NCBI GenBank assembly: GCA_048938855.1
Contig: JBHLLT010000006.1
Span: 1-64,000 of the forward strand
Reading direction: 5' to 3'
Source: Promethearchaeota archaeon
GTDB lineage: Archaea > Asgardarchaeota > Lokiarchaeia > Sigyniarchaeales > SOKP01
Length of the DNA: 64,000 nt
Shown here piece after piece: positions 43,486 to 59,146 of the stretch. Numbering within the stretch: the stretch's first letter is position 1; every line of letters starts with the position of its first letter. Under the pieces are notes generated by a model. The model saw only the letters and a program-made list of their open reading frames with translations. It had not been told where the DNA came from and made no database searches. The position numbers and the translations under genes are program-made.

Positions 43486-43592
43486 TGGCGGGCTATAGGG
43501 GAATTGAACCCCCGACCTTTCTTTTTAAGGGAGAGCTTCCCATAAATGTCAGGTTAAAAGCCTGCTGCGCTACCTGCCTGCGCCAATAGCCC
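43486..43592 (-). tRNA. tRNA-Lys(UUU) with a ~30-nt insertion/intron near position 44/45 (approx. 43518-43547); CCA encoded
   Basis: GGGCTAT/ATAGCCC acceptor, GCGC D-stem, CAGG-CTTTTAA-CCTG anticodon arm, GGGGG-TTCAATT-CCCCT T-arm. Confidence 0.88.
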
Positions 43593-44944: not shown

Positions 44945-45046
44945 GCCTCTGTAGCTTAGTGGTTATAGCAACATTTTTAGTCATTTTGAAAAAAATGCTA
45001 GAGATTCGTAATCTGTAGATCGGGGGTTCAATTCCCCCCAGAGGCT
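44945..45046 (+). tRNA. tRNA-Thr(CGU) with a 29-nt intron at 28/29 (44973-45001)
   Basis: GCCTCTG/CAGAGGC acceptor; after splicing ACAGA-TTCGTAA-TCTGT; central helix AGCA/TGCT with ACA and AGA bulges. Confidence 0.92.
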
Positions 45047-45050
45047 CTAT

Positions 45051-46064
45051 TTATACTTCTTCTGTAAAAACAAAACGTTTAATCATTTGAAGGGCTAGCA
45101 TTTTAAAAGCATCGTTTATATTTTCACCTGTTTTTGCTGAAGTTTCAATATATGAAAGGCTAATTTTTTTAGAAAGTTCTTCTCCTTGTTCTGTGGACAC
45201 GACGCGATTATCTTCAAGGTCTATCTTATTTCCAACTAGTATCATTGATATAGTTGGTGAAATGGTTTTGATCTCTTTAAACCAACTTTCTAGAATGTCT
45301 AAAGTCTCTTTGCGAGTAACATCATATACTAAAATACCTGCTTCAGCATTAGCAAGGTATGTCTGTCTCACTCTTTTAAATTGTGCTTGTCCTGCTAAAT
45401 CCCAGATAACGAAACGAACTTTAGATTCTAGTCCTTTAAATTCACATTCTTTTTTCATTATTGATGTACCTATTGTAGATTTATAATCTGTTTGAAAAGA
45501 GTCTTCCACAAATCGGTGAACCATACTAGTCTTTCCAACTCCACCTTCACCACCCAGGATTAATTTAAAAGCATATTCTCCAGATTCTATTTTAATCTTT
45601 TGAAGAGTATCTACTTTTCTCTGGATATTGTGAGACTCTCTATCAATAGATAACTTAGGAATTACTGGGCTTACTGATCTTCCATCTAAAATTCTAGCAA
45701 TTTTCTCAGCAGCTAAATAAGCATATGGAAAAACAGGATCTACCATAGCAACTGCTTTCAATACAGTGACAAAAACTGCTTCAGGACCAGCTTCACAAAA
45801 TATGAATCGTTGCTCTTCTGTATCAAAAGTTCCCGTTCCAAAAGAACCAGAACTAAACTCTTCTGTGATTCTAGTCAAGACAGGTTCGACTAATGCACTA
45901 ACTCCTCCAATAACATCTTCTTCTACCTCTGCATCTGAAGAACCTTTTAATGCGGTCATTACTAACCCTTCTCTATTTACAATAAGAGTCGCGATTAAGT
46001 TCTCTCCTACTTCTTGCTTATACCATTTAAGTAAGGCTTCAAGTTTTTTTCGATCGACTGACAT
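45051..46064 (-). CDS. Roadblock/LC7 domain-Rab-like GTPase fusion
   Basis: N-terminal 'LIVNREGLV' roadblock; C-terminal GEGGVGKT, TIG, WDLAGQ, NKID, SAK. Confidence 0.9.
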   Translation of the reverse strand: MSVDRKKLEALLKWYKQEVGENLIATLIVNREGLVMTALKGSSDAEVEEDVIGGVSALVEPVLTRITEEFSSGSFGTGTFDTEEQRFIFCEAGPEAVFVTVLKAVAMVDPVFPYAYLAAEKIARILDGRSVSPVIPKLSIDRESHNIQRKVDTLQKIKIESGEYAFKLILGGEGGVGKTSMVHRFVEDSFQTDYKSTIGTSIMKKECEFKGLESKVRFVIWDLAGQAQFKRVRQTYLANAEAGILVYDVTRKETLDILESWFKEIKTISPTISMILVGNKIDLEDNRVVSTEQGEELSKKISLSYIETSAKTGENINDAFKMLALQMIKRFVFTEEV

Positions 46065-46294: not shown

Positions 46295-46467
46295 GCAGGA
46301 GTTGCCAAAATAATACGTAGTCCTACTTTTATGGCTAAGCTTGGTCTACGGCGCTAGAATTTTACGTAATAGTACGTATATGGCGTAACTGAGGCTCTAG
46401 TGACATAGGTCTTCGAAGGATCTACTTCTTCGTCCTAAATTCGTGGGTTCGAATCCCACCTCCTGCA
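46295..46467 (+). tRNA. tRNA-Leu(GAG) with three introns: 46309-46338 (14/15), 46358-46387 (30/31), 46412-46439 (variable arm)
   Basis: Removing the three segments gives an 85-nt class II cloverleaf: GCAGGAG/CTCCTGC, CTAGA-CTGAGGC-TCTAG, GAC-ATAG-GTC variable arm, GTGGG-TTCGAAT-CCCAC. Confidence 0.9.
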
Positions 46468-57673: not shown

Positions 57674-59146
57674 TTATCCTTTTACTACTCCTACAGGAAC
57701 TAATCTTACTATTTTTTCAACGATTTCAAGATCGTGGCTCACCTGAACAACTTGATCTATGTCTTTATATGCACCGGGTGCCTCTTCGGCAATCACTTTC
57801 ATCGAAGCTGCTCGTACCATAATTCCTTGTTTACTTAAACTATCTTTAACACGTTCTCCCCAATATTTTTTTGTAGCTTTAGCTCTTGACATTACTCTTC
57901 CCGAACCATGCGCAGTGGAACCAAATGATAAATCCATCGCATTCTCCTTCCCAACACATAGATAAGAAGCAGACCCCATAGTTCCTGGAATTAATACTGG
58001 TTGTCCAATAGATTTATATTTTTGTGGTATATCAGGATGATTTGGCGGAAATGCTCTCGTAGCACCCTTTCTATGAACGTTTAACTTCATTTTTTTACCA
58101 TCAATTTCATGTTCTTCAATTTTTAAGATATTGTGGCAAACTCCATAAATAAGGTGTAAATCTAAAGCATCTATATCTCTTTGAAAGGTTTGCTGAAATG
58201 ATTCTCTTAACCAATGTGTGATTAATTGACGGTTAGTAAATCCAAAATTAGCTGCACATGCCATTTGTTTTAGATAATTTTGTGCCTCAGGAGTATTTGC
58301 AGGTACGCACGCTAATTCTCTATCTGGTACTTTTATATTATATTGTTTCATAGCCTGCTCAATATTGCGTAAAGAATCTGAACATACTTGATGTCCAAGG
58401 GCTCTGCTTCCTGTATGAATCATAACAGTAATTTGATTCTTATCATGAATTCCCAACTTTTCAGCGATACTTTTATTATAAATTTCATCGACTTTTTGGA
58501 TTTCTAAAAAATGGTTTCCACTACCTAATGAACCAAGCTGTTTTATTGCACGCTGTTTTGCTTTCAATGAAACCAGTTTAGCATCTGCATCCATTAAACA
58601 TCCATTTTCCTCTAAATGATTAATGTCTTCTTCAATAGCATAACCATTATCTAATGCCCATTTTACACCATTATTTAAAACATCATCTAACTCTGAATAA
58701 CTAATATTAAGTTTGCCCTTCGAACCCAATCCTGAGGGGATATTTGTAAATATTCTATCCAATAAATTGGGAAGAACATTCTTAATATCATTAAGAAATA
58801 AATTAGATCTTAATAATCTTACACCACAATTAATATCATATCCTACTCCTCCAGGAGATATCATTCCTGTATCTGCATCTGTTCCAGCAACACCACCAAT
58901 ACAGAATCCATATCCTTGGTGGGCATCTGAAAGAGCAATCGCATGTTTTTGTATTCCGGGTAAACAAGCAACATTACAAATCTGATCTAATGTCCGATCC
59001 AACTTTATTTTCTCCAAAATATAATCATTAGCATAAATTTTTACAGGAACTCTCATCTGAAATTTTTCGATATTTCCTTTAATCCGCGACATTAATGTTT
59101 TTGGAGGAATTTCATAGATATTGTTATCAATTTTATTGACATTCAT
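57674..59146 (-). CDS. rtcB: tRNA-splicing ligase RtcB
   Basis: DAHQGYG, DINCG, GNHFLE, HTGSR, HN, HRKGA, HGSGR, EAPGAYK; no intein. Confidence 0.97.
   Translation of the reverse strand: MNVNKIDNNIYEIPPKTLMSRIKGNIEKFQMRVPVKIYANDYILEKIKLDRTLDQICNVACLPGIQKHAIALSDAHQGYGFCIGGVAGTDADTGMISPGGVGYDINCGVRLLRSNLFLNDIKNVLPNLLDRIFTNIPSGLGSKGKLNISYSELDDVLNNGVKWALDNGYAIEEDINHLEENGCLMDADAKLVSLKAKQRAIKQLGSLGSGNHFLEIQKVDEIYNKSIAEKLGIHDKNQITVMIHTGSRALGHQVCSDSLRNIEQAMKQYNIKVPDRELACVPANTPEAQNYLKQMACAANFGFTNRQLITHWLRESFQQTFQRDIDALDLHLIYGVCHNILKIEEHEIDGKKMKLNVHRKGATRAFPPNHPDIPQKYKSIGQPVLIPGTMGSASYLCVGKENAMDLSFGSTAHGSGRVMSRAKATKKYWGERVKDSLSKQGIMVRAASMKVIAEEAPGAYKDIDQVVQVSHDLEIVEKIVRLVPVGVVKG

Follow-up and report, generated by a model that had tools for sequence, protein, structure and literature searches.

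A tRNA-Leu(GAG) gene with three introns in a Lokiarchaeia genome, and the probable origin of one intron as a copy of another

How does one tRNA gene come to hold three introns, and how might they be removed? The question is raised by a 173-nt gene at positions 46295-46467 (+ strand) of a 64,000-nt stretch of DNA from a Promethearchaeota archaeon (Lokiarchaeia; assembly GCA_048938855.1, contig JBHLLT010000006.1), here called the window. This is almost certainly a real and functional tRNA-Leu(GAG) gene with three introns. Our preferred reading, to which we give a probability of roughly 0.85, is that the gene is essential and present in a single copy, that its introns are spliced at bulge-helix-bulge (BHB) motifs and were acquired stepwise, and that intron 1 was copied from intron 2.

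All parts of the gene lie on the + strand. Exon 1 (46295..46308; 14 nt) provides tRNA positions 1-14 and does not vary in 11 orthologues. Intron 1 (46309..46338; 30 nt) follows at site 14/15 in the D arm. Exon 2 (46339..46357; 19 nt) provides positions 15-30 and intron 2 (46358..46387; 30 nt) interrupts the anticodon stem at site 30/31. Exon 3 (46388..46411; 24 nt) includes the anticodon (GAG, 46391-46393) together with the greater part of the variable arm. Intron 3 (46412..46439; 28 nt) is in the 3' foot of that long arm, 3 nt before G49. Exon 4 (46440..46467; 28 nt) supplies the T arm, the acceptor 3' strand and the discriminator A73; CCA is not encoded. The outer coordinates, the intron lengths (30/30/28) and the helices (TGCC/GGCT, CGCT/GGCG and TAGG/CCTA) are those of the first-pass annotation. 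Furthermore, a profile alignment that allowed introns only at BHB-like sites, with no preset boundaries, returned the same three introns.

Joining the exons yields an 85-mer that ARAGORN identifies as tRNA-Leu(gag), its acceptor stem having seven pairs and its variable arm being long. The 85-mer matches the spliced product of a one-intron orthologue at 84/85 positions, and intronless orthologues from this locus at 74-75/85, and the clean Leu cloverleaf proposed earlier is thereby borne out. Partly spliced forms fared worse with ARAGORN; there was no call if intron 1 was kept and a wrong call if intron 3 was kept. The gene is also covered by overlapping DNA contigs from a second study, with 0 differences inside the gene, and by a single contig from a public DNA run that may be the source. 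Among reads of four DNA runs on the gene, there was no joint skipping an intron.

The gene was not called by ARAGORN in the raw window and was missed there by Rfam at the gathering threshold. A genome-wide Rfam search recovered the 3' part only (19 bits). Thus, the suggestion that standard annotation may overlook such tRNAs is correct for this gene. The gap is already in print: in a recent preprint on Asgard archaea, tRNAscan-SE misses 30%, mostly in the D arm (bioRxiv 10.64898/2026.10.13.758758). Two other tRNA genes in the window have introns. These are tRNA-Thr(CGT) (44945-45046, + strand), whose anticodon stem is interrupted by a BHB intron of 29 nt and which ARAGORN wrongly calls Phe, and tRNA-Lys(TTT) (43489-43592, − strand), whose 30-nt intron lies close to the anticodon stem or variable region, the boundary being approximate.

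The window belongs to a metagenome-assembled genome (MAG) that is 97% complete with about 7% contamination. Next to the tRNA gene is a divergent gene for a roadblock-like and small GTPase protein (45051..46064, − strand), named from motifs only, which served as synteny anchor and tree marker. Relatives of this GTPase gene mostly have Promethearchaeota or Promethearchaeia labels, including Loki_b32 and Loki_b31, and some have other Asgard labels; on this basis the host is an Asgard archaeon of the Lokiarchaeia type. Contigs C11, C19, C29, C30, C37 and C35 are about 65% GC and look foreign in a 30% GC MAG. Contig C35 also carries a second version of the Leu(TAG)-Glu-Asn tRNA cluster found on C31, in which the introns differ; this contig is probably from a second strain or species.

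The tRNA census, which was tallied by hand and in which some intron boundaries are uncertain, comprises about 46 loci, of which 34 contain introns and about seven contain three. The intron load is about 1.15 per tRNA gene, and most introns are AT-rich and 28-33 nt long. Three-intron genes are those for Leu(GAG), Leu(TAA), Val(TAC), Ser(GGA) and Asn(GTT) and two whose anticodon is unassigned. In the raw genome the other six (C89:10216-10392, C81:162192-162354, C49:52192-52355, C31:5246-5414, C34:244171-244334 and C49:43788-43962), which each seem to have three introns, are all missed by ARAGORN. A degenerate tRNA-like sequence at C6:104247-104318, below the Rfam threshold, is possibly a pseudogene.

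All five Leu anticodons occur in the genome, GAG at 46295-46467 only. The first-pass annotation had raised the case of Leu(GAG) being supplied by another gene; the genome was searched, and neither a second GAG gene nor a pre-spliced copy was found in the MAG. The first and last exons each occur once in the genome, and its long ORFs contain about 22,900 CUU and CUC codons.

The genome encodes two paralogues of the splicing endonuclease EndA and the ligase RtcB. The paralogue on contig C93 best matches A. pernix EndA alpha (E=4.5e-34) and has the catalytic Tyr138/His146/Lys177, with lysine K55 of its L1/CSL loop aligned to A. pernix K44. The second, on contig C34, lacks the catalytic His and the loop. 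This division into one catalytic paralogue with the loop lysine and one non-catalytic paralogue is that of (alpha-beta)2 EndA from Aeropyrum pernix (PDB 3p1z/3ajv). Taken together, the C93 triad and K55, the C34 paralogue and RtcB support the broad-specificity splicing system that had been proposed for this lineage. Such an Asgard EndA is already in print; this type and its loop have been reported for Asgard archaea, and the lysine is tied to cleavage of relaxed motifs (PMC5829648). In the literature examined, we found no report on the subunit assembly or activity of an Asgard EndA. Judged from its sequence, RtcB (57674..59146, − strand; PF01139, E=3e-170) is the likely exon-joining enzyme. 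It is encoded 11 kb from the tRNA gene, a proximity for which we claim no functional linkage. The same information-processing region holds genes for RNA polymerase B and for Cbf5-like and PolD-like proteins, the latter two named from sequence motifs.

We infer the following route to the mature tRNA. The gene would be transcribed into one precursor, in which each intron would refold with adjacent exon bases into a BHB. An (alpha-beta)2 EndA would then cut after the second base of each bulge and RtcB would join the exons. Because the chemistry of EndA and RtcB is established, we expect three cycles of cutting and joining, followed by end trimming and CCA addition. The final 85-nt tRNA would read CUC and CUU.

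The gene adjoins the same GTPase gene in 64 genomes, in about 16 intron layouts. Orthologues have between 0 and 3 introns, at about nine positions, and 10 are intronless. The 173-nt layout of the window is common to 11 species-level genomes. Across these 11 genes, only 3/85 exon columns vary, compared with 46/88 intron columns; since exons are near-invariant and introns variable, the sequence layout is not due to chance. The central-helix pairs persist despite G-U and A-U changes, in 164/164 cells from 41 orthologues for intron 2 and in 94/96 cells from 24 orthologues for intron 3.

Intron 1 is present in 11 of the 135 family genomes searched, all from one genus. We examined intron distribution on a tree of one neighbouring gene, that for the GTPase, on which kin are not independent. 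A single clade was rejected for carriers of intron 2 (37), of intron 3 (22) and of a 59-nt intron described below (9; p=0.0001). These carriers therefore reflect repeated gain, loss or exchange. For the 11 carriers of intron 1, one clade was not rejected (AU p=0.30), the best tree having two changes. Within the genus, the introns were probably gained and lost stepwise. The 30/31 intron is the most widespread and the variable-arm intron is more restricted; the 14/15 intron would have come last, as a copy of intron 2 placed 49 nt upstream, where the site looks similar. Intron 3 shows no sequence kinship with introns 1 and 2 or with the T-arm introns of relatives, the scores being within background. 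Separately, no gene among orthologues L003-L111 combines the variable-arm intron with a T-arm intron.

Comparison of the sequences suggests that intron 1 is a probable copy of intron 2 of the same gene. The two introns are colinear, with the same length and register, and are identical at 21/30 positions here and at 27/30 and 28/30 in two relatives. Intron 1 averages 21.8/30 identities to intron 2 of its own group and 17.5/30 to intron 2 of genomes that do not have intron 1. Because intron 2 is the more widespread, and its own-group alleles are the closer, the likely direction of copying is from intron 2 to intron 1. The insertion sites are also alike; 5/8 flanking bases are identical and the rest differ by transitions. 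In addition, G10-C12 offers a ready-made complement to the GGC with which intron 2 ends. As to agents, a reverse transcriptase was sought and the draft genome contains no PF00078 match, which does not imply absence. Ongoing gene conversion between the introns was considered and is not supported; within-genome identity was 22.2 and cross-genome identity 21.8 (permutation p=0.13), with one genome alone (G009) suggestive.

One alternative is that introns 1 and 2 were inserted separately from a third donor, a tRNA intron or mobile element now lost or unsampled. Transposition of the Thermoproteales type and the integration model for Caldiarchaeum provide precedents (PMC3293823). There is also a weak resemblance, with a score of 6, between intron 2 and the intron that Val(TAC) has at roughly the corresponding position, and every genome here is a draft. 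However, a profile scan of this genome and a 3-mismatch search of five relatives found no third copy, and the intron-2 alleles that intron 1 most resembles are those of its own group. Hence, we regard a third donor as unlikely, and copying of intron 2 within the gene as the better account.

Does the D-arm intron leave the precursor at the expected boundaries? In a scan of registers, those of the first-pass annotation had the top score among those tested for all three introns. In these registers, a full hBHBh' occurs in intron 2 only, the one strict and canonical motif of the three. The motif of intron 1 is relaxed. It has a strong intron-side helix and three central pairs with a U-U mismatch (U9-U), which is found in 11/11 orthologues, and a usable exon-side helix is absent. 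Intron 3 has an HBh'-type motif with four central pairs and a weak exon-side helix of 1 bp; the copy in this genome also has a U-U beside the bulge. Thus, in the register that gives the product, the exon-intron boundaries fit a strict BHB for intron 2 and relaxed BHBs for introns 1 and 3.

The three motifs occupy separate exon bases and so force no fixed order of splicing. Folding predictions for this genome would nevertheless favour removal of intron 2 first and intron 1 last. The predicted helix probability in the full precursor is 94% for intron 2. That of intron 3 rises from 14% to 84% after removal of intron 2, and that of intron 1 from 2% in the naked full precursor to 28% with the other introns gone. 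Averaged over 11 orthologues, the bias is largely gone; the mean for intron 1 is 49% in the full precursor and 70% with the other introns gone.

An alternative register for intron 1, slipped so that A13 pairs with U, is 0.2-0.5 kcal/mol more stable. Its central helix consists of four Watson-Crick pairs, and the small gain in stability holds in 11/11 orthologues. Excision in this register would lengthen the D loop by two A, and it is conceivable that imprecise or slipped splicing gives some tRNA with one or two surplus A there. In tRNA, G15 takes part in the 15-48 pair. The slipped register would move G15 out of that pair. Orthologues without intron 1 have a two-A loop, and the 30-nt colinearity between introns 1 and 2 agrees with the normal register. 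We therefore find slipped splicing doubtful, and retain the normal register. Excision of intron 1 at 8/9 was also rejected; it would disrupt the acceptor stem and, judged by eye, orthologues do not preserve it.

Might the likeness of introns 1 and 2 be convergence between AT-rich 30-nt hairpins that both end in GGC? Most introns of the genome are of this size and composition, and one orthologue has a core identity of only 13/23. Outside the motif-constrained ends, identity in the window gene is 16/23 (shuffle p=0.004). The cores match at 23/23 positions in G009 and 22/23 in another relative (p<1e-4 against shuffles). Among 990 pairs of introns from the genome, these two also rank first, with a score of 12 against 8 for the runner-up and a mean of -5, in a comparison built on a first census parse with some mis-set intron boundaries. 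The identical cores largely refute convergence, which we consider very improbable. Finally, a pseudogene or an assembly artefact is scarcely credible: the MAG is a draft with contaminant contigs, but 11 species-level genomes share the layout and conserve the exons, the gene is also present in DNA from an independent study, and it is the sole GAG gene found.

Some orthologues have a different intron in the D loop. Nine (L014, L016, L019, L020, L022, L023, L024, L039 and L047) contain an intron of 59-60 nt at 15/16. It reads as a 29-nt hairpin intron in which a canonical BHB intron of 30-31 nt is nested at offset 23, with perfect central and inner helices in 8/9 cases and in 8% of shuffles. A single excision of the whole intron is also possible. 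No outer-only 29-nt form was found in the 135 genomes searched. A literature search that did not include Fujishima 2010 and Sugahara 2007 returned no relevant report of nested archaeal tRNA introns. The 59-nt intron is always accompanied by changes to G6 and A9 in exon 1. Its carriers are scattered on the tree of the neighbouring gene, which suggests that the 5' part of the tRNA gene may have been exchanged between lineages.

The architecture itself is not new. The first-pass annotation took three-intron tRNAs to be mainly a feature of Thermoproteales, a premise now out of date given published Asgard cases, including one for Leu (PMC11291895; bioRxiv 10.64898/2026.10.13.758758). In three Asgard genomes, 92-95% of tRNA genes have introns and over half have several, and Supplementary Data 4 of that study includes a tRNA-Leu(CAA) with three introns (Valentin-Alvarado 2024, PMC11291895). 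The Asgard focal families of the preprint have 2.2 introns per gene, and up to five, with repeated recent gains; copying between tRNA types accounts for 1.5% in Asgard archaea versus 28% in Thermoproteales (bioRxiv 10.64898/2026.10.13.758758). As in the tRNAs of Atabeyarchaeia and Freyarchaeia/Jordiarchaeia, several short BHB introns occupy non-canonical sites of one gene here; further likenesses to Asgard multi-intron tRNAs are D-arm introns that annotators overlook, gains that are recent and repeated, and a two-subunit EndA. Unlike those archaea, the host belongs to Lokiarchaeia, which the main text of the preprint does not name, and its intron burden is about half that of the preprint's families. 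Moreover, two introns of one gene are homologous here, whereas the preprint's copying test was between tRNA types.

Thermoproteales also have up to three introns per gene, use of the 30/31 site, similar introns at different positions, an (alpha-beta)2 EndA and known intron transposition (Sugahara 2007, 2008; Fujishima 2010; as reviewed in PMC4090602 and PMC4033280). In that order, a family of introns is spread over many types of tRNA. The family described here comprises two members, both in one gene, and no further copy in another tRNA was found in this genome or five relatives. Site 14/15 is absent from the site list of the Thermoproteales review, which is itself incomplete.

The three-intron layout extends a known Asgard trait to Lokiarchaeia. 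The comparative value of the locus is in one syntenic gene with about 16 layouts in 64 genomes and a near-identical intron pair inside the gene. We think it likely that the locus records intron gain in an Asgard archaeon by copying within a gene, from 30/31 to 14/15. In sister lineages, the locus has a 30-nt BHB intron apparently nested in one of 29 nt. Within-gene copying lies outside the preprint's test; the preprint names the route of intron arrival as the central open problem (bioRxiv 10.64898/2026.10.13.758758). With its strict, relaxed and nested introns, the locus offers a natural substrate set for Asgard EndA, and is a small, testable case of intron arrival. If our reading is correct, within-gene copying would be a concrete and recent example of how intron DNA arrives.
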